In this document: in pieces, positions 3,706-13,043 of the stretch
Position numbering within the stretch: position 1 is the stretch's first letter
How the letters are laid out: every line of letters starts with the position of its first letter
Source: Candidatus Azotimanducaceae bacterium
GTDB lineage: Bacteria > Pseudomonadota > Gammaproteobacteria > Pseudomonadales > Azotimanducaceae
Reading direction: 5' to 3'
Assembly: GCA_965243175.1 (NCBI GenBank)
Contig: OZ251532.1
Coordinates: 2,041,464-2,105,463 of the forward strand
DNA length: 64,000 bases
Translations under genes and position numbers: made by a program
Notes under the pieces: model-generated
Database searches by the model: none
What the model was told of the DNA's origin: nothing
Seen by the model: only the letters and a program-made list of their open reading frames with translations

Positions 3706-6069
3706 TCACCTTCCGACGACGCCGCTGCCCACGAGTTGCTCCACCTCGCCAGCCGGCAACTTCAGCAGGTCGTGAAGCACACCCTCGGTGTGTTCGCCCA
3801 GCAATGGCGAGCGGCGAACCGCCGGGCGTTCGCCTTCCACCAGCACCGGCAAGCCGGTGTAGCGCCGGGTGCCGGAGGTCGGATGCGCGAGCGCTGGGAA
3901 GAACGACGTCTCGCTCGTCGCCATGTCGTCGCCGGTCACCACGCGGGAGGCGTGTACGCCAGCAGCGCGCAGGGCGGCTTCGGCATCTTCGACGGCCAGT
4001 TGCCGCGCCCACTCGCCGAGGGCCTGATCAATCGCAGCCGCGTTCGCGATGCGTCCGGCCAAAGAGCGGAACGACGCGCCAGCCAAGCGCTCGTCGGCAA
4101 CCACTTCGGCAACCTCTTGCCACTGCGCGTCGTCCTCCACCGCCAAGGCGAGCCAGCGTTCGCGCCCTTCGCCATCGTCGGCGCAGCGATAGCAGCCGTG
4201 CGGCGCCATGTCGTGGCTGCCGTTGCCTAGCGGCACGACATCCTCCGCGGCGTAGAACTGCTGCACGTAGCGGTCGCCGATGAGAAACGCCGCGGCTTCC
4301 ACTTGCGTGGCGTCGATGAAGCAGCCTTGGCCGGTTCGATCACGACGCATCAATGCCGCCAGCAACGGCACCAGCGCCTGCTTGCCGGCGATGTGGTCCG
4401 GGTGGTTCAGCGTGGTGCCCACTGGGAAGGGATCGTCGGGGTGCGACCACTGGTGGGTCACGCCGGAGAAGGTTTGCAGGTTCGGGCCGTAGGTTTGGAA
4501 GCCGTCGTAGGGGCCGCTCCCCAGCCCTTGGCTGCCCAGGTAGACGACGTCCGGGCGGATCGCCTTGGCACCGCCGTAGTCCAACCCCCAGCGCGCGACC
4601 ACCGAGCCGCGCATGTTCTCCATCACGATGTCGCATTCGGCGGCGAGTCGCTGCACCACCGCCACGCCTGCCGGCTTCGACATGTCCACCGCCAGGCTGT
4701 GGACGCCGAGGTTGAGCTGGTTGAAGGTGGGGCTGTTGTTGACGTCCATCGCGCCGGCCATGCCGTTGCGCCGCAGGAAGTCCACGTGGACCAACGATTC
4801 CACCTTGACGACTTCGGCGCCGAACAGCGCCAGCAGCGAGGCCGCTTCCGGCACCACCGCGCCGACGCCGAGTTCCAACACGCGCACACCAGCCAGCGGC
4901 GCCTCGCTGACGGCGGGTGCGTCGCTCGATGGCGTTGGGCGGCTGGCGGCTTGGGCTCGCGCCGCTTCGGTGTCGGCGCCGAGCGCGGGCGCGGGAGCGG
5001 GTTCGGCTTCGAGTTCCTGCGGCAACAAGCGCAGCGGCGTGCGCACCCGTTCCATCGCGCCGAACTCCGGGTCGTCCACTTCGCGGATGATCTGCCGAGC
5101 GCGAACGTGCGGGTCCTTGCGAAACGCGCTCAACGTGTTCACCGGCGAAATGGTCAGGCCCAGCCGCTGCCCTTCCATGAACAGGTCTTCGGTGGAACGC
5201 TCGCGGATCAGCTCGGCGCACAGGAGCTTCAGCGCGTCGGCGTTCTCGACCCGGAACTGCGGATCGCTGAACGGGCCGTCGACGATTGCCTCCGGTTCGC
5301 CGAGCAGCTTCACGAAGGCGGCCCACTGCTTCGGAGTGCCGGCCAGAATGCGCGCGTAGCCGTTCTGGGTTTCGTAGATGGGGAAGCCGTTGGGACCCAG
5401 TCGAGCGGTCAGCGTACCCTGGCCAGCGGCCTGCATTTCGTAGGCATGCAAACAGCGCGTCCACGGCGTGATGGCCGACACGGCGGCCTCGTGGTACGGA
5501 ATCTCGAACCGCGCGGTGCGTCGCCTCTCGCCCGCCCGCTGCGCTGCGAAGAGGCCCATCGCCGCCATCACCGCGGCGTAGACGCCAGCCCCGTCGAGCG
5601 CCAACCACGACGGCGCGTTGCACGGCGGCTGCTCCGGCCAGCCGCTGGACGCCATGCCGCCACTCGCCGCGAAGCCGACGATGGACGAGACGCCAAGCCC
5701 CAGTTCATCGGTCACCGTCGCCGCCACCTTCGGCTGCGCGCTCGCAACGCAATCGTGAAACGGCGAACGTTCCGCATCGAAGACGACATCCGCCTGCGCG
5801 CAGAGACCAAGCAGCAGGCGCTGGTCGTCGCCGCTCGCAGGGTCCAGCACGACGCTCTTCTTGCCCGCGTTGCGGGCGAGGAAGGCGATGCTGCCGCGAG
5901 TGGATTCGCCAGCGTTCGGAACACGCGGCAAGCGCCTGCGTGTCGCTCCGCCGCCCGGCGGCTCGACCAGCCAGACATCGGCACCCAAGCCAGCGAAAAT
6001 CAAGCCAGCGTATTCAGTGTGCGGGTGCGCGATCTCAACGACCTGCACGCCATCAAGCAAACCAGCCAT
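3706..6069 (-). CDS. Family III CoA-transferase (CaiB/BaiF type), two tandem transferase modules in one 787-aa protein
   Basis: N-terminal LDGVQVVEIAHPHTEYAGLIFAGLGADVWLVEPPGG and an internal LAGVRVLELGVGAVVPEAASLLALFGAEVVKVES both match the CaiB N-terminal signature. Confidence 0.85.
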   Translation of the reverse strand: MAGLLDGVQVVEIAHPHTEYAGLIFAGLGADVWLVEPPGGGATRRRLPRVPNAGESTRGSIAFLARNAGKKSVVLDPASGDDQRLLLGLCAQADVVFDAERSPFHDCVASAQPKVAATVTDELGLGVSSIVGFAASGGMASSGWPEQPPCNAPSWLALDGAGVYAAVMAAMGLFAAQRAGERRRTARFEIPYHEAAVSAITPWTRCLHAYEMQAAGQGTLTARLGPNGFPIYETQNGYARILAGTPKQWAAFVKLLGEPEAIVDGPFSDPQFRVENADALKLLCAELIRERSTEDLFMEGQRLGLTISPVNTLSAFRKDPHVRARQIIREVDDPEFGAMERVRTPLRLLPQELEAEPAPAPALGADTEAARAQAASRPTPSSDAPAVSEAPLAGVRVLELGVGAVVPEAASLLALFGAEVVKVESLVHVDFLRRNGMAGAMDVNNSPTFNQLNLGVHSLAVDMSKPAGVAVVQRLAAECDIVMENMRGSVVARWGLDYGGAKAIRPDVVYLGSQGLGSGPYDGFQTYGPNLQTFSGVTHQWSHPDDPFPVGTTLNHPDHIAGKQALVPLLAALMRRDRTGQGCFIDATQVEAAAFLIGDRYVQQFYAAEDVVPLGNGSHDMAPHGCYRCADDGEGRERWLALAVEDDAQWQEVAEVVADERLAGASFRSLAGRIANAAAIDQALGEWARQLAVEDAEAALRAAGVHASRVVTGDDMATSETSFFPALAHPTSGTRRYTGLPVLVEGERPAVRRSPLLGEHTEGVLHDLLKLPAGEVEQLVGSGVVGR

Positions 6070-6163
6070 GCACCCTCCTTGAAGCCCGAGCCCATCCTAC
6101 ACCCGAAGCGATGCGCCCACGTGGCAGTTACTGTCAATCGACTACTAATCACTGTCAAATTCA

Positions 6164-6996
6164 CTAGGGCGTGTTGACACTACTGCAGGGCATCGACGAT
6201 GAGCGCCAGATAGACGAACGAAGCGAAGACGACGTCCAGCTTGTCGTAGCGCGTGAATATCCGCCGGAACCTCTTCAGTCTCCCGAAGAGGCGCTCCACT
6301 TCGTTGCGGCGCCTGTAGATCCCCTTGTCGTAGTCCCACGGCTTCTTGCGGTTCTCCTTCGGCGGAACCACCGGCATCGCGCCCATCTCCTCCACCAGCG
6401 CCCGCGTCTCGTCGCCCTCGTACGCCTTGTCCATCGCCACGTTCTCCGCGGTCAGCGGAGTCGCCGCCAGCAGCTTCCTGCCCTCCGGCCTGTCTCCCGC
6501 CTGCCCGCCCGACAGCGAGAAGTTCACCGCCGTGCAGGCGTCCGCCGCGATCGCGTGGATCTTCGTCGTCCATCCCCCGCGCGACTTGCCGATGCTTTGC
6601 GCACCGTTTTTTTTAACGCCCCGGTCCCATCCGGATGCACCTTCACCAGCGTGCTGTCCAGCGACACCGTGTCCCCTTGGCCGCCGACCACCCCGAGCTC
6701 GCGCAACTCCTTGAAAATCGCTGCCATGACGCCCTTCTTCGACCACCGCTCCCAACGCCGGTACACCGTGTTCCACGGCCCGTAGCGCTCCGGCAGCGCG
6801 CGCCACTTGCACCCGTTCTCCAGCACGTAGAGCATCCCGTTGAGCTGCGTCAGCGGGTCGTGCTTCACGTTCCCCCGCGGCCGCGGCAGCACATGCTTGA
6901 TCTTCTCGAACTGCGACTCCGTGATCTCCATGACGACCTCCTTGTCGTCTCAAATCTCCACGCCAATGTACCACGCGTTATGTCAACACGCCCTAG
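6164..6996 (-). mobile_element. IS5-family insertion sequence (IS427/IS1031-like), about 0.83 kb
   Basis: Perfect 16-bp terminal inverted repeat: ctagggcgtgttgaca (6164-6179) and tgtcaacacgccctag (6981-6996). The outer CTAG could instead be a 4-bp target duplication. It encloses a two-frame transposase. Confidence 0.85.
6180..6931 (-). CDS. IS5-family transposase OrfAB, needs a -1 frameshift on an A8 run
   Basis: OrfA (6524-6931) reads MEITESQFEKIKHVL...GCKWRALPERYGPWNTVYRRWERW. OrfB frame (to 6180) reads ...GGWTTKIHAIAD...MDKAYEGDETR...RNEVERLFGRLKRFRRI. The frames join at the T8/A8 run 6607-6614 (GALKK|NGAQS). Confidence 0.85.
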
Positions 6997-7082
6997 CAAC
7001 TGCCTTGCACGCTATCGCGATCCAAAGCCGACGGGGCCGTCCGCCTGCGGAACGCAAACCCCGTTGACGCGCCCGGCGCCGA

Positions 7083-7288
7083 AGGAAACCTGGGCGCTGA
7101 CGATGCGCTGGCACGATCCGGCGACGGCCACGGACATCCCGGACTACGACCAGTCGCGGGCCGAAGCGCAGGCGGAGCGCACCCGGGCGGACGCGGTGGA
7201 GCACGAAGCGCGAGCCCGCACGGGAGCGGACCAGCGCAGGATCGCCGAACTGGAAGGACAGCTTCGGCGGCTGCGCGAGGGGCGTTGA
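7083..7288 (+). pseudogene. C-terminal fragment of a second Uma2-family gene (N-terminal part missing)
   Basis: TWALTMRWHDPATATDIP...AEAQAERTRADAVEHEARAR...IAELEGQLRRL parallels the LRFHDPETG plus coiled-coil tail of 2781-3617. The PD-(D/E)XK core is absent and the IS lies immediately upstream. Confidence 0.5.
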
Positions 7289-7322
7289 GTCCTCTGCGTG
7301 GCCGTTCAGCACGGCTGGCTCT

Positions 7323-7366
7323 TGCGCTTGACAAGCGCGTTGGGAGAGAGCACTCTTTGCGCCGTT
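7323..7366 (+). promoter_or_regulatory. Conserved about 44-nt box (copy 1) with TTGACA at 7328-7333, upstream of precursor A1
   Basis: tgcgcttgacaagcgcgttgggagagagcactctttgcgccgtt aligns with 10667-10710. The flanks are not conserved. Confidence 0.4.
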
Positions 7367-7481
7367 CAACTCGGCGAGCCGAGTGGCGAGTGCGCCGTGA
7401 GGGATGCGGCGCGGTGGCTGTTTTGGCAGCTAGGCCAGCAGCTGGGAGCAGCTTTCCTTAAATCAACGCGAGGAGTACGCT

Positions 7482-7684
7482 ATGAATTCCCCCCCCCCCC
7501 CCCCCCTCAGAAAGCCGAGGACGACAGCGGCGACGTAGCGCCGCACGAAGCCGCTGCGGCAGAAACCAAGAAGAAGCCGTGGTCGAGGCCGACCTTCCGC
7601 GCCATCGACGAAGTGACGATGTCGGCGAGTGCGCCGGCTCCCGACCTCGCTGAGAACACCGCTTACTATCCACTGTCGAACTGA
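7482..7684 (+). CDS. Putative RiPP (lasso-like) precursor peptide A1; the ATG frame and the conserved peptide frame differ by -1 inside a C18 tract
   Basis: SD GAGGAG 6 nt before ATG 7482, then the C18 tract. The conserved frame reads ...PPPPPPQKAEDDSGDVAPHEAAAAETKKKPWSRPTFRAIDEVTMSASAPAPDLAENTAYYPLSN* and is paralogous to 10810-11027. Confidence 0.6.
7489..7506 (+). repeat. Homopolymeric C18 tract
   Basis: Counted directly. Confidence 1.
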
Positions 7685-7750
7685 GTGGTGCGGCTAGCGG
7701 CTTCGGCAGCGGCTGGACTCCAGCAGCAACGCGGCCAGAGGCGGTCTGAG

Positions 7751-8782
7751 ATGCCGGCTTTCTATCGCGCCTATGGGTTGCGCGTGCGCTCCGAGGTGCC
7801 GCTGCCGTTCGATTCATTGCCGGCGCCTGTCCAAGATGCGGACGTCACGGTGCGCCTTGGCGACATTCCCGCCGAGCTTCCCGGCAGCGACGTCGTCCGC
7901 AAGGTGCGGTGGCAGGCCCGGCCTGGCGTCTTCCTCATCAAAGTCGAGGGCGTCGCTCGCTACTTGGTGGAGGGCGGTCGGGACATTACCGTGGCACCGC
8001 TTGGCGGCGACGATGCCGACATCGCCGCCTTCTTCGCCAACGCGCCCTTCGCAGTCCTCCTTCAACAGCGCGGCGTGCTCACGCTGCACTCCAGCAGCGT
8101 GGCGACCGGGGCTGGCGCGGCGTTGCTGCTCGGCGAGAGCGGAGTCGGCAAGTCCTCGCTGGCAGCGGCGCTCGTCGAGCGCGGCTTTCCGCTGATCGCG
8201 GACGACGTGACCGGGCTGGTCGCGGACGCAGACGGTCGCGTGACGGCGCTGCCCGGGTTCGCGAGCCTGCGGCTGTGGGCGGATACCTTGGACGAGATGC
8301 GCTGGCGAGGTCGCGGCGAGTCGAAGATGCGGCAGAGCATGGACAAGTACTGGATGCCCGTCGAACGCGCCCGCGCCACGCCGCTGCCGGTGCATGCCGC
8401 CTTCGTGCTGAAGGCCAACGGATCGAACGTCGACATCGATCCGATGCCGGAGCGGGACGCTTTCTCGCTGCTGTGGAGAAACACCCATCGGGCGCGGGCG
8501 ATGGGCGCGATCGGCAAGACGCAAACACGGTTCCGCACGGTCGCCGCGATGGCGCAGCGCGTCCCGGTAGCGGTAGCGACGCGGCCACGCCATCCGTTTC
8601 TGCTCGATGCGCTGGCGGACCGGGTTGCGGCGCTGCTTCCCGCGGCTTCGTTCTCCCGGGCCAGCGTGGCGGGACCGTGGCGCGACGTCCTGACGAAAGC
8701 CCAGGAGCGAGCGTTGACCAGCGCTCACGGCGAGGTGATGGCGCGGTTCGGCTATCTGCCGGACGCCGAATCGCCGGCGTAG
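7751..8782 (+). CDS. HPr-kinase-like P-loop kinase (HprK C-terminal-domain family)
   Basis: LTLHSSSVATGAGAALLLGESGVGKSSLAAALVERGFPLIADD is the HprK-type Walker A region. ORF 7685-8782 with ATG at 7751 preferred. Confidence 0.8.
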   Translation: MPAFYRAYGLRVRSEVPLPFDSLPAPVQDADVTVRLGDIPAELPGSDVVRKVRWQARPGVFLIKVEGVARYLVEGGRDITVAPLGGDDADIAAFFANAPFAVLLQQRGVLTLHSSSVATGAGAALLLGESGVGKSSLAAALVERGFPLIADDVTGLVADADGRVTALPGFASLRLWADTLDEMRWRGRGESKMRQSMDKYWMPVERARATPLPVHAAFVLKANGSNVDIDPMPERDAFSLLWRNTHRARAMGAIGKTQTRFRTVAAMAQRVPVAVATRPRHPFLLDALADRVAALLPAASFSRASVAGPWRDVLTKAQERALTSAHGEVMARFGYLPDAESPA

Positions 8783-8816
8783 GCATTTTCGACGCTTCGT
8801 GTACGCCGCAGCGTCG

Positions 8817-10661
8817 ATGGCCGCGATCTGTGGAATCCGCACTGCGGGCCGGGGCGGCAAGGCGGCGCTCGAGGCCATGCTGGGAACGCTTGCGGGAGCT
8901 GGCCCCGCGCACTCGGCTTGGCCGCAAGCGGCCATCGGCCTTGGCTGCCGCGAGACGGCGCTAGGCGAACCCGCGCTGGTCGCGGACGATGCCGCCGGCT
9001 TGACGCTGGTGGCCGACGCCCGCCTCGACGACCGCGATGGCCTTTGCGACGCGCTGGGCGTTCCAGTTGCCGAGCGCCGAGGCGTTGCCGATGCGCAACT
9101 GATTCTCCGCGCCTGGTCGCGCTGGGGCCGGGAGTGCCCGAACCACCTGCTCGGCGACTACGCCTTCGCGCTGTGGGACGCGCGGCGCCATTTCATGTTC
9201 TGCGCTCGGGACCACGCCGGCGCCCGGCCTTTCTACTACGCCCTGCCCAAGGACGGCATCGTCTTCGCGAGCGCCGTCGAACCGGTCCTCCGTGCGCCGG
9301 ACGTCGGGGACGCCTTGGACGAAGCCGTGGTGGCGACGCATCTTGCCAGCCGGCATTGCAGCGACACGCGCACGTTCTTCGCTGCAGTGCGCAAGCTGCC
9401 GCCGGGCCATGCGCTCTGCGTCGAATGGGCGCCGTCCGCGAACGGCACCGTGCAGCGAAAAAAGAGCCTCGCGCGTTACTGGCGGCCCGAACTGGCACCC
9501 GTGGCGAGACCAGCCGCCGACGACGAGTACGCCGAGCAGTTCCGCCACCTGCTCGCCCAAGCGGTGCGCGACCGGCTGCGCGGGTGCGATCCCGGCGCCA
9601 TCGGAACCCATCTGAGCGGCGGCCTGGATTCCTCCAGCATCGCGGTCGTCGCGGCCCGCGAGTTGCGCAGCCAAGGCCGTTCGCCGCCGCTCGCCTTCAG
9701 TTGGCTGCCGCAGCTGGGGGATGCGCCGCCCAAGGCCGAGTACGAGCGGGAGTACGCGCTGGTCGACGCGGTGTGCGCCCAGGAAGGCATCGAGGTCGTC
9801 CACGGCACGCCTTCGGCTGCGGACACCCTCGGCGTACTCGGCACCGACGGGGCGCTGCCCGGCATCCACCTTCACATCAACGAGGAGATCGCGCAACGCC
9901 ATGCCGCGGCCAGAGGCGTGCGTGTGCTGCTCTCCGGCTGGGGCGGCGACGAGTGCGTCTCGTTCAATGGCCGCGGGCATTGGCAGGAACTGCTCTTGCG
10001 TGGCCGCTGGCGGAAGCTCGCCGCCGAGTGTCGGGCGCAGGACGCCACGGCGCTGCGTTTCCTGGCGCACGTCGTGCTGCCGCTCCTGCATCCCGCGCTC
10101 GTGCCAGCGCTCGCCGGAAGCCGTAGCTGGCCGACCGCGAAGCGCTGGCTTATCGACCCCGCGTTCTCTCGCCGCGTGAAGCCGTTGGCTGCACCGGGAT
10201 GGCGAGAGATCGGAGTGCGCAGCACGCAGCTTCGGCTGCTGCAGGCCGGGCATCTGGTCGACCGCATCGAAGGCTGGGCGGCCAGCGGCGCCCGTCGAGG
10301 TATCGAATACCGCTATCCGCTGCTGGATCGCCGACTGCTGGAGTTCGCCCTGGGGCTGCCGCCCGAACAGTTCCGGCGCGGGCGCTGGAGCCGCTGGCTG
10401 TTCCGCCACGGCTGCCGCACGCTGCTGCCGCCGGAGGTCCGCTGGAATCGGCTGAAGGCCGACCCGGCGCGCAGCGAGACCACGCAGGACGCCTTCGTCG
10501 AGGCGTTCCCCGCGATCCGGCAGCGCCTCGCCGCCCGCACTCCGTCCCGCGCCCGCTACGTGGACGTGCAGCGCCTGCTCGAACGCCTGGACGCGGCGCG
10601 GTTCCACACCAAGCCGCAACCGGGGCCGATGATCAGGGCGCTGCAACTCCTCGATTTCTGA
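8817..10661 (+). CDS. Asparagine-synthetase-like protein (lasso-cyclase-like; Cys not at position 2)
   Basis: MAAICGI, LLGDYAFALWD, RDHAGARPFYY, PP-loop THLSGGLDSSSIA, LLSGWGGDE. An alternative GTG start is at 8799. Confidence 0.85.
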   Translation: MAAICGIRTAGRGGKAALEAMLGTLAGAGPAHSAWPQAAIGLGCRETALGEPALVADDAAGLTLVADARLDDRDGLCDALGVPVAERRGVADAQLILRAWSRWGRECPNHLLGDYAFALWDARRHFMFCARDHAGARPFYYALPKDGIVFASAVEPVLRAPDVGDALDEAVVATHLASRHCSDTRTFFAAVRKLPPGHALCVEWAPSANGTVQRKKSLARYWRPELAPVARPAADDEYAEQFRHLLAQAVRDRLRGCDPGAIGTHLSGGLDSSSIAVVAARELRSQGRSPPLAFSWLPQLGDAPPKAEYEREYALVDAVCAQEGIEVVHGTPSAADTLGVLGTDGALPGIHLHINEEIAQRHAAARGVRVLLSGWGGDECVSFNGRGHWQELLLRGRWRKLAAECRAQDATALRFLAHVVLPLLHPALVPALAGSRSWPTAKRWLIDPAFSRRVKPLAAPGWREIGVRSTQLRLLQAGHLVDRIEGWAASGARRGIEYRYPLLDRRLLEFALGLPPEQFRRGRWSRWLFRHGCRTLLPPEVRWNRLKADPARSETTQDAFVEAFPAIRQRLAARTPSRARYVDVQRLLERLDAARFHTKPQPGPMIRALQLLDF

Positions 10662-10666
10662 CGCAC

Positions 10667-10710
10667 TGCGCTTGACAAGCCGCACTGGGAAAGAGCACTC
10701 TCGCGCCGTT
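10667..10710 (+). promoter_or_regulatory. Conserved box (copy 2) with TTGACA at 10672-10677, starting 6 nt after the cyclase stop
   Basis: tgcgcttgacaagccgcactgggaaagagcactctcgcgccgtt aligns with 7323-7366. Confidence 0.4.
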
Positions 10711-10809
10711 GGACGCAACTTGAACGGGACCGTCGGGTAGCCGCAAGGCCCCGAGAGCAAGATCGGTCGAGAGGCCGATCTGCACACCCAAGCCAGCAGA
10801 GGCCACTCT

Positions 10810-11027
10810 ATGAATTTCCCCAATTTCCCCCCCTCCCCCCCCCCCCCCCCCCCCCCCCTGAGGACGACAACGACGGCGTAGCGCCGCGCGAGCCGTTAGC
10901 GGCAGAAACGAAGAAGCCGTGGTCGAAACCCACCTTCCGCCGTCTCGACGATAGGACCATGTCGCGAGTCGCAAGCGGGCCGCAACCGGAAACGAACGAG
11001 ATCGGCGTTTACAACCCAAACTCGTAA
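10810..11027 (+). CDS. Putative RiPP precursor peptide A2; again -1 out of frame across a C24 tract
   Basis: SD AGAGG 7 nt before ATG 10810, then C4, C7 and C24 runs. The conserved frame reads ...EDDNDGVAPREPLAAETKKPWSKPTFRRLDDRTMSRVASGPQPETNEIGVYNPNS*. That frame has no ATG, GTG or TTG between 10662 and 10958. Confidence 0.55.
10835..10858 (+). repeat. Homopolymeric C24 tract, preceded by C7 at 10827-10833
   Basis: Counted directly. Confidence 1.
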
Positions 11028-11069
11028 GTCGCGAAGCATTCATTGACGGACACAGCTCGAAGCGTCCCC

Positions 11070-11135
11070 ATGCAGGCTGCCTACTGCGCCTGCGGGTTGC
11101 GGGTGCGCTCCGACGTGCTGCTGAACTGGCCGTAA
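11070..11135 (+). pseudogene. 21-codon relic of a second HprK-like kinase gene
   Basis: MQAAYCACGLRVRSDVLLNWP* compared with the kinase N-terminus MPAFYRAYGLRVRSEVPLPFD (12 of 21 identical). It holds the same position relative to A2 as the intact kinase does to A1. Confidence 0.6.
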
Positions 11136-11147
11136 GGCGGGCGTCGG

Positions 11148-13043
11148 TTAGGACTTGCGGGCAAACCGGAGCGCGCGCACCGCCAGCGCGAGGAGGGCCA
11201 GCGCAATTGCGTACCACATCAGGAAGCCCAGGGAGAGGGTGAGGGCGGATTCCATCTCCAAGGCCAGTACCGCGAGCATGTGCGTGCCAGCCGCCAACGT
11301 CGCAGGGCAGGCGTCTGGATGGTGCAGGAGTTCGTGCAGGGCGCGATAGAGCAGGCCGAGCGCGACCATGCCGAGGAGCACGCCGGCGAGGCCGAAGTTG
11401 ACGTAGAACTCGCCGAGCTGATGCACCTTGAAGGCGCGCATCGTGTCCGGCGCCGTGAAGCCGTACCGAATCCCCAAGTCGCGCACGTCGCCCGGTTTCT
11501 CGGCGAAGACGGCGCGGGGGACGAGCTTGTAGAGGATCGGCAGATAGGTCTCGCCGTGCAGGAAGGGCAGCGGGTCGGGGGAGCGCACGGTGAGCCAGGC
11601 GAGGGGCAGCAGGTAGTCGAGGCGCTTGGCGGTCAAGTCCTCGGTGCGCATCGCGCCGCCTTCGCCGTCGAACGCCGCCGCCATCGTCTTCGCGTACAGT
11701 CCCGCCTTCTCCGCTAGGGAATCGTGCGCCTGCGGCGCTCCCGGGTTGCTGGGAATAGCGGCACGGAAGGGCGCGTCCGCGTGTTCGGCTGCGGCGACTT
11801 CGTGCGGGACGACTTGCTTCAGCCGCGACAACTCGATGCGAACGGCCACTATCGGATAGTCCGGCAGACGGAGGCTGGCGACGCAGCGGCCGTCTTCGAC
11901 GAGGCCGTCGCCGAAGGAGGTTCCCAAGGACTGGAAACTGCGGCGCCATCTGAGTTCGGGCAGGTCGCGTACGTCCACCGGATCGACGAACGCGCCGATT
12001 CGGAACGCCGGTTGGGCGCAGACTTCCGGGTCGTTGTGGGCGACGGTGAGGGTTCGGCCGCGAAGCGTTGCTTCGTAGGCAGGCGTGGTCAACGTCTGTT
12101 TCTCGCCGTCCGCCAGCACGAACTGGTGGGCGGCGACCGGCGAGGTCGCGTTCGGGCCCACGCCATGCGTCCAGATCAGCTGCCGGTACTCCAAGCGCGT
12201 GGGAATCAGCACGAAGAGGAGCGCCGCGGCGGTCACTGCGCCGAAGGCGATGCCGCGCCAAGTCGGCCTCGGTGCGACCACCGCGTAGGCCACGAACAGA
12301 GCGAACACCGCCTTCGCGCCGTGGTTCACCATCCCGGTGCTGAACCCCAGAACCGTGTAGTACGCGACCAACGCCGCCAGATAGAGCCGCCCGGCAACGC
12401 CAAGCTGGCCGCGCAAGTGCAGGTGGAAGCACACCAGCGCCGCGAACAGCACGAACTGCCCGGCGAGCGTCACCGGGAACGCGACCGCATCGGGCAGCAG
12501 CGTCTCCCCGGCGTACCGGGCGGCAACCGCCGCCTTGTCCAGATAGAAGAACGGCGCTGCGGCGAGGCCCACCACCACCGCGACCGCCTTGGCGAGCTGC
12601 GGATCGTCGCTCGGCAATATGCGGACGGTCGGCAGCGCGGCCCACGGTTTCCCGCCGGCGAACGCGAAGTAGCCCGCCATCAGGGCGGCCCATCCGCCGA
12701 GAGCCAGCATGAGCGCGTAGTCGATGGCGTCCGCTTCGAGCAGCGGCCGCGGCAGCCAAGCGCCGAAGAAGTCGACGCGCACGAAGACCGGCGCCGCGAA
12801 GCAGGCGGCGTAGAGGACGCCGACGTAGGGCATCGCCGAGTGTCGCCAACGCCGCCGTGCAGCCCACATGAGCGAAGGCGCCGCGCACAGGGCGATGAGC
12901 AAGCTCGCGAGCAGGCGCTGCAAGCCGGTCGGCTCGGCTGGCGCGTGGAGATTGAGGGCGACGATGGCCAACGCCACCAGAACCGCGACCGCCGCGAACA
13001 TCCGCCGCCCGTCGTCGAGTGCGCTTGCTGGTTTCTCTTCCAT
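11148..13043 (-). CDS. Polytopic membrane protein of unknown function (Wzy/O-antigen-ligase-like topology with a large soluble insert)
   Basis: 631-aa ORF with many hydrophobic helices at both ends and an insert of about 200 aa. The family assignment is a guess. Confidence 0.65.
   Translation of the reverse strand: MEEKPASALDDGRRMFAAVAVLVALAIVALNLHAPAEPTGLQRLLASLLIALCAAPSLMWAARRRWRHSAMPYVGVLYAACFAAPVFVRVDFFGAWLPRPLLEADAIDYALMLALGGWAALMAGYFAFAGGKPWAALPTVRILPSDDPQLAKAVAVVVGLAAAPFFYLDKAAVAARYAGETLLPDAVAFPVTLAGQFVLFAALVCFHLHLRGQLGVAGRLYLAALVAYYTVLGFSTGMVNHGAKAVFALFVAYAVVAPRPTWRGIAFGAVTAAALLFVLIPTRLEYRQLIWTHGVGPNATSPVAAHQFVLADGEKQTLTTPAYEATLRGRTLTVAHNDPEVCAQPAFRIGAFVDPVDVRDLPELRWRRSFQSLGTSFGDGLVEDGRCVASLRLPDYPIVAVRIELSRLKQVVPHEVAAAEHADAPFRAAIPSNPGAPQAHDSLAEKAGLYAKTMAAAFDGEGGAMRTEDLTAKRLDYLLPLAWLTVRSPDPLPFLHGETYLPILYKLVPRAVFAEKPGDVRDLGIRYGFTAPDTMRAFKVHQLGEFYVNFGLAGVLLGMVALGLLYRALHELLHHPDACPATLAAGTHMLAVLALEMESALTLSLGFLMWYAIALALLALAVRALRFARKS

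Follow-up and report, generated by a model that had tools for sequence, protein, structure and literature searches.

Introduction

SSR contingency loci typically act on surface antigen or restriction-modification genes of pathogens, and almost all known cases of homopolymer-driven phase variation affect restriction-modification systems or surface structures in pathogens adapted to a host. Genes for RiPP precursors are usually assumed to be under conventional control. In lasso clusters, homologues of HPr kinase phosphorylate the C-terminal Ser of the precursor (reviewed in PMC8498205). We describe here a lasso-type locus in a 64-kb window (the whole stretch of DNA that was analysed), in which two precursor genes, A1 and A2, each carry a long run of C between the start codon and the conserved peptide. 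We consider it somewhat better than even, at a probability of roughly 0.55, that this hypermutable leader tract is a frame switch and that the precursors are phase variable through slipped-strand mispairing.

Organization of the locus

A1 and A2 flank the genes for a kinase homologue and a cyclase homologue (Table 1). The best specific match of the cyclase homologue is the lasso cyclase NF033535, at 342 bits, which is below the curated cut-off of 525; for the kinase homologue, 116 homologue clusters were found. A leader motif, WxxPx[ILVF], is common to about 80 peptides of the family and resembles the YxxPxL recognition motif of lasso leaders. At the sequence level, the features of a lasso precursor are all found in A1, namely the leader motif, a Thr near position -2, a small residue at the start of the core and an Asp or Glu at positions 7 to 9: the putative junction reads ...PWSRPTFRAIDEVTM / SASAPAPD..., which would place Thr at -2 and give a core running from Ser1 to Asp8. 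In A2, the Glu would be at position 10, a poorer fit to the usual Asp/Glu at 7 to 9. Most peptides of the family end in Ser, and A1 ends in Ser-Asn.

A tblastn search of the 64-kb window returned no homologue of B1 (PqqD-type) or B2 (transglutaminase-type); these may be encoded elsewhere in the source genome. Many related loci contain them, for instance L038 and L005 (PqqD) and L039 (Transglut_core3), and many also contain sulfotransferases, GT8 glycosyltransferases and hydroxylases. Because B1 and B2 are absent, full membership of a lasso cluster is not established for the window locus, and we read it, from its gene content, as a putative satellite of a kinase-type lasso system that consists of a precursor, a kinase, a cyclase and a second precursor. 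Single genomes (OY282353, OY282455 and OZ241358) hold five or six separate kinase loci; some loci have a precursor and a kinase with no cyclase within 10 kb (L081), and some have kinase-sulfotransferase fusions (L080). These arrangements suggest a dispersed lasso system whose enzymes are shared in trans.

Erosion at the window locus is local and takes two forms, a truncated second kinase gene and an IS5-type element. L082 has an A2-like peptide with an intact 312-aa kinase behind it; since the window retains no more than a 21-codon remnant of such a gene, it has lost a second precursor-kinase unit. About 330 nt upstream of the promoter-like block of A1 lies the IS5-family element (6164-6996), bounded by perfect 16-nt terminal inverted repeats at 6164-6179 and 6981-6996. 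Its transposase is encoded by two minus-strand ORFs, 6524-6931 and 6145-6573, and the sister strain L079 does not have the element.

Table 1. Coordinates of the features of the precursor locus within the window
Feature	Positions	Strand	Remarks
Promoter-like block 5' of A1	7323-7366	+	From the A1/A2 upstream alignment; TTGACA at 7328-7333; putative role
Shine-Dalgarno site, 6-nt spacer and start codon of A1	7470-7484	+	GAGGAG 7470-7475, ATG 7482-7484, followed by AAT T; same ATGAATT start in L079, L085 and L086
A1 C18 homopolymer	7489-7506	+	Exactly 18 C, read directly; poly-Pro in every frame; length hypervariable among alleles
A1 conserved peptide frame	7508-7684	+	QKAEDD...KKKPWSRPTFRAIDEVTMSASAPAPDLAENTAYYPLSN (QKAEDD...YYPLSN), 58 codons, TGA 7682-7684; leader remainder KKKPWSRPTFRAIDEVTM and putative core SASAPAPDLAENTAYYPLSN; one base out of the ATG register
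HPr-kinase homologue (tailoring kinase of lasso clusters)	7751-8782	+	Pfam Hpr_kinase_C, TIGR04352/04355-like; all below curated cut-offs
Asn-synthase-type lasso cyclase homologue (C protein)	8817-10661	+	Pfam Asn_synthase and GATase_7
Promoter-like block 5' of A2	10667-10710	+	Homologous to the A1 block
A2 start codon, C/T-rich stretch and C24	10810-10858	+	ATG 10810-10812, AATTTCCCCAATTTCCCCCCCT, C24 10835-10858
A2 conserved peptide frame	10860-11027	+	EDDNDG...KKPWSKPTFRRLDDRTM / SRVASGPQPETNEIGVYNPNS*; no in-frame start upstream
21-codon remnant of a second kinase gene	11070-11135	+	MQAAYCACGLRVRSDVLLNWP*; directly downstream of A2

Upstream of both precursors lies a common block of about 44 nt (TGCGCTTGACAAGC...GAGCACTCT..GCGCCGTT), roughly 100-115 nt before the ATG, which contains TTGACA and lacks a consensus -10 element. 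A simple scan found no full sigma-70 consensus promoter, and terminator-like matches were at background level.

Reading frames of the two precursors

The ATG frame of A1 reads MNSPPPPPLRKPRTTAAT and terminates at TAG (7536-7538). The peptide frame begins 26 nucleotides after the start codon (7508-7482), and one extra nucleotide or a -1 shift would join the two frames. In A2, the corresponding offset is 50 (10860-10810), which is 2 mod 3, as in A1. An earlier note on this DNA had described the A1 start and C18 with the peptide one base out of register, the end of its ATG frame, the offset of 26 and an equal offset in the second copy, and on re-reading the sequence is exactly as it described. 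C18 starts two codons after the ATG and C24 eight codons after it. The 64-kb window contains runs of at least 10 C only at these two tracts, and overlapping C 10-mer matches number 24, where shuffled sequence gives 0.17 on average.

Alternative start codons in the two peptide frames were considered and rejected. The A2 frame has no start codon of any kind upstream, and the A1 frame has solely GTG and TTG codons, which fall within the promoter-like region and have no Shine-Dalgarno site. With the offset as it stands in the assembled sequence, standard decoding can make neither peptide.

The variable region of A2 is not a pure homopolymer. Relative to L079 (ATGAATTTCCCCAATT followed by C16), the window has an extra AATTTCCCC-like duplication and T interruptions (10813-10834) before its C24, and the region is 17 nt longer.

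The tract in related loci

For comparison, 78 loci were collected via the kinase from species-representative genomes and nine more from assemblies, giving 87 loci which, together with the window, make up 1.10 Mb. G/C runs of at least nine occur 77 times in this set, and 57 of them are poly-C on the sense strand directly 5' of a precursor leader that can be recognised; among the remaining 20, several stand before peptides not caught by the leader motif. The layout is constant, with a Shine-Dalgarno site, an ATG, zero to eight codons, a run of C9 to C27 and the remainder of the leader. It is found in MAGs labelled Gammaproteobacteria/Pseudomonadales, Alphaproteobacteria and Binatia, and its occurrence extends from long-read chromosomes to assemblies built from short reads (k141 contigs in the MEGAHIT style, gapped scaffolds). 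Judging by the taxa and by how the records are styled, the bacteria probably belong to sponge-associated communities.

That the tract is a general trait of high-GC genomes, or of all kinase-type lasso loci, was considered and rejected: closely related loci hold 72 runs in 663 kb, and 441 kb of distant JGI metagenome kinase loci with a GC content of 63.5% hold a single C9, which confines the tract to one clade. This metagenome scan yielded distant relatives only (at most 36% identity) and no further alleles of the window locus. The tract is likewise absent from the locus of a cultured Sphingomonas (L052). Homologues that lack the tract start in frame in the ordinary way; where the tract would be, they have a short PPP or nothing (MSKSTSPPPVADTH..., MPMPKPPPETETH... 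and MTDKNDIAAP...). Since these homologues start normally, the ATG is the genuine start codon and the tract a run of Pro codons that has expanded.

Several further observations concern C runs outside the standard layout. In L033, a C20 run (4083-4102, minus strand) lies inside the cyclase gene, whose two halves, aa 1-452 and aa 465-614, do not share a frame across the run, and a biosynthetic enzyme may thus carry the same kind of switch there. Small ORFs without a lasso leader motif are also preceded by SD-ATG-polyC or by conserved runs of C14 to C18 (L004 5221-5238; L031 5155-5169, MKAEMPPPPPDDDGWMMDDDVASIVDASCVIPSHR; and L038 12338-12352, L040 12786-12800 and L043 12000-12013). In one orthologous precursor, DDSACRKLSWKAPRIR..., the short A/T-rich sequence that separates the ATG from the C run also varies among related MAGs (ATGCCTATAAAT, ATGCCTTGAAAT, ATGCCTTTAA and ATGCCTTAA), and in-frame stops arise in some of the variants; approximate positions at its start are L034 4598-4625, L035 4608-4633, L038 4596-4619, L040 4617-4639 and L043 4661-4686.

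Variation of the tract and conservation of the peptide

The earlier note had suggested comparing tract lengths in sister strains, and near-identical strains do differ in the tract. L079 has an overall identity of 98.3% with the window and, except in the tract, matches it fully across about 400 nt at A1 and again at A2. On identical flanks, the A1 tract is C18 in the window, C15 in L079 and C12 in L086, all three in the same -1 register. More diverged A1 alleles have C15 (L085), C14 (L087 and L084) and C16 (L083). L085, which has a different 3' flank, is in frame, and a 65-aa gene is called there; L087, L084 and L083 all need -1 nt, and L083 has ATA where the other alleles have ATG. One of seven A1 alleles is thus in frame, and together the alleles occupy all three registers. 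At A2, L079 is in frame and has a called 66-aa gene, and the window, with its C24 complex, is out of frame. Paralogues also vary, with C19, C13 and C17 in three otherwise identical copies in L032, and C16 and C13 in the L039/L041 pair, and orthologous tracts in related short-read MAGs range from C9 to C23.

Across about 45 tract-bearing precursors, approximately 17 are in frame, 10 need -1 nt and 19 need +1 nt, a distribution indistinguishable from uniform. Registers were assigned by the nearest open ATG, the choice of which is ambiguous at some distant loci, and the counts are descriptive only, as the alleles are phylogenetically non-independent. A hand tally of the short-read-only subset gives about six in frame, four needing -1 nt and five needing +1 nt; OFF registers are thus not an artefact of long reads. 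Two short-read scaffolds end at or near a tract: that of L082 starts with 17 C (1-17), and that of L083 (1-38) ends 22 nt upstream of its C16. Either heterogeneous tract lengths or poor read-through would fit such ends.

Downstream of the tract, the reading frame is well preserved. It is unbroken in almost all of the roughly 60 cases, the sole internal disruption being a frameshift in the L040 precursor at 5845. The A1 frame is intact in every orthologue, with pairwise dN/dS of 0.2-0.7, and conservation across precursors extends to the leader motif and the C-terminal Ser. Intact frames, a conserved motif and Ser, and dN/dS below 1 together argue against simple decay into pseudogenes.

A proposed frame switch in the leader

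We propose the following mechanism as the best explanation. With a run of the right length, the gene would read M-N-S-(Pro)n-leader-core, and the poly-Pro segment would form the extreme N-terminal part of the leader, ahead of the recognition motif K-K-P-W-S-K/R-P-T-F/I-R. Because maturation removes the leader, the product should be the same whatever the number of prolines. Slipped-strand mispairing during replication would alter the length of the run and bring the peptide into or out of register with the only usable start, so that each precursor gene would be toggled on and off independently and heritably, as a contingency locus. Both A1 and A2 would be OFF in the window as assembled, each being one nucleotide short.

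The data on which this rests are as follows: the tract is specifically associated with precursor starts at many loci, the repeat lies inside the ORF, its length is polymorphic on otherwise identical alleles, the length shifts the gene between ON and OFF registers, and the peptide frame stays intact. The differences observed are between strains or between paralogues, and slippage at high frequency within a population, controlling peptide output, would be the process behind them. The ON or OFF call for any single gene, including those in the window, is uncertain, as runs of 15 to 27 may be assembled about one base off.

Three further observations speak against a switch. First of all, the C18, C15 and C12 alleles of A1 differ by multiples of three and keep the OFF register, which would happen by chance in about one case in nine. 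Second, the peptide is conserved even though a single one of the seven A1 alleles is ON. Third, a purely DNA-level switch does not need the strict orientation of the tract as poly-C on the sense strand; this orientation can be rationalised, since poly-G in the mRNA would be structured and would resemble a Shine-Dalgarno site.

Alternative explanations

The earlier note had listed four mechanisms for the tract. Slipped-strand variation was among them and is the one that we favour; the note's lean towards recoding or a systematic undercall is not upheld. The note had reasoned that the equal offsets of A1 and A2 favour recoding or such an undercall, an argument that fails once other alleles are considered, because L079 A2 and L085 A1 are in frame and all three registers occur across loci. 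It had also named tract-free homologues with ordinary in-frame starts as evidence against recoding, and such homologues exist. What survives of its undercall and recoding idea is the common -1 register of the three A1 alleles on identical flanks and the uncertainty of about one base in the lengths of long homopolymers in long-read assemblies. An obligatory programmed -1 frameshift, in particular, is rejected by the existence of in-frame alleles and orthologues.

Decoding at the RNA level is unlikely and, among the alternatives, the least so. RNA polymerase, the ribosome on poly-Pro codons, or both would slip on the tract and yield in-frame peptide from any DNA register, and the -1 register would then be a productive low-output state, possibly dependent on EF-P, and not OFF. 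Slippage of RNA polymerase on long homopolymers and slippage of tRNA-Pro on CCC-C, countered by EF-P, are both documented. Such decoding would account for a near-uniform distribution of registers, as if the DNA frame were under little selection, for the -1 register that window A2 has in common with the three A1 alleles, for the conservation of the peptide with six of seven A1 alleles out of frame, and for a tract that is always poly-C in the sense of the mRNA. On the other hand, the offset is not fixed across orthologues, as the conserved offset expected of recoding would require, and falls instead into the three groups of about 17, 10 and 19. No conserved downstream stimulatory structure accompanies the tracts either: folds at and after them contain no frameshift-stimulating structure common to A1 and A2 (z of -2.2 and -0.5), the tract itself is unpaired in the predicted folds, and an Rfam scan of 6900-11300 at E <= 1 returned no match. 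Moreover, slippage during elongation in bacteria is documented mostly on A/T runs.

A stronger version of the same idea, which we regard as quite improbable, makes the poly-C itself a decoding device, such that on 12 to 27 C the combined slippage of RNA polymerase and an EF-P-sensitive ribosome would render expression largely independent of register. The conserved -1 register of the C12, C15 and C18 alleles of A1 would then be the functional state, and each cell would have a low and stochastic output of several precursors that compete for one set of maturation enzymes.

Another possibility, of low probability, is that the tracts in the window are miscalled, with actual lengths of C19 and C25 (or C16 and C22) that would make both genes ordinary in-frame genes with a poly-Pro N-terminus. 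Homopolymers of at least 15 bases are the main residual class of error in HiFi-type data. The closest relatives lie on contigs with names in the HiFi/metaMDBG style, and sponge MAG projects use this pipeline (PMC12648040). Short-read contigs break at the tract, that of L082 starting inside it, which would also suit a miscall. In addition, registers that are one base short (about 19) outnumber those that are one long (about 10), an excess that is not significant among non-independent alleles. The differences between alleles, at 3, 6, 8 and 17 nt, are however not of the ±1 kind that miscalling would produce; out-of-frame registers occur in short tracts too (e.g. C9, L045 2803) and in about two thirds of the hand-tallied short-read assemblies; and a uniform undercall of one base would put L085, L079 A2 and about 15 others out of frame.

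Finally, neutral runaway expansion in decaying precursors, at least in those of the window locus, with the C runs as mutational remains of Pro codons where GC content is high and repair weak, would fit the lack of B1 and B2 at the window locus, its truncated second kinase and the IS5-type insertion just upstream, as well as the ATA of L083 and the frameshift of L040, but is very unlikely given the nearly universal intactness of the frames, the conserved motif and Ser and the dN/dS below 1, and runs that are pure, strand-specific, position-specific and virtually absent both from other parts of these loci and from their distant homologues.

Implications of a possible switch

If the frame switch that we favour operates, natural-product output would vary stochastically between individual cells, and a locus with as many as six precursors would add combinatorial diversity. 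Software for genome mining and gene calling would systematically miss such precursors or place them in the wrong frame; at A1 of L079, no gene is called. Heterologous expression of these clusters would fail unless the tract length were set correctly. The tracts are also natural material for studies of how very long runs of C and of Pro codons are transcribed and translated.

Comparison with known systems

Literature searches for RiPP or lasso precursors controlled by homopolymers, phase variation or slippage found nothing relevant; the single match to 'homopolymer' concerned the filtering of 16S reads. Both components of the present case are known, the phase variation of G/C tracts and the kinase-type lasso cluster, and it is their combination, the lengths of the tracts and the conservation across a clade that are new to us.

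With respect to the biosynthetic genes, the locus resembles the phosphorylated lasso clusters of paeninodin and of Sphingobium yanoikuyae, which combine a precursor, an Asn-synthase-type cyclase and an HPr-kinase homologue, the counterparts here being the precursors, the cyclase homologue and the kinase homologue. Most precursors of the present family end in Ser, the target of the kinase in those clusters (PMC8498205), and related loci include a PqqD-type B1 and a transglutaminase-type B2, as those clusters do. The described kinase-type clusters, in contrast, have ordinary precursor starts, and the window locus differs from them further in having neither B1 nor B2 and in an A1 that ends in Ser-Asn.

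With respect to decoding, there is a likeness to dnaX, to IS transposases and to mxiE of Shigella, in which the productive frame also differs from the initiating frame near a homopolymer. Those systems have a conserved and fixed offset, often together with a stimulatory structure, whereas here the offset varies and no structure is conserved.

With respect to the repeat, the arrangement is that of the SSR contingency loci with G/C tracts in Campylobacter, Neisseria and Helicobacter, where the repeat follows just after the start and its length sets the frame. In contrast to those loci, the target here is a RiPP precursor, apparently in uncultured, sponge-associated bacteria of high GC content; the tracts are much longer than is typical (up to C27) and are always poly-C on the sense strand, and reversible switching is a prediction here. 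The closest analogy for the precursor tracts would be the opa family of Neisseria, whose CTCTT repeats lie in the region of the signal peptide, and thus, as in the leader here, in an N-terminal part that the mature product no longer contains; as in opa, paralogues with independent tracts would make combinatorial expression possible.
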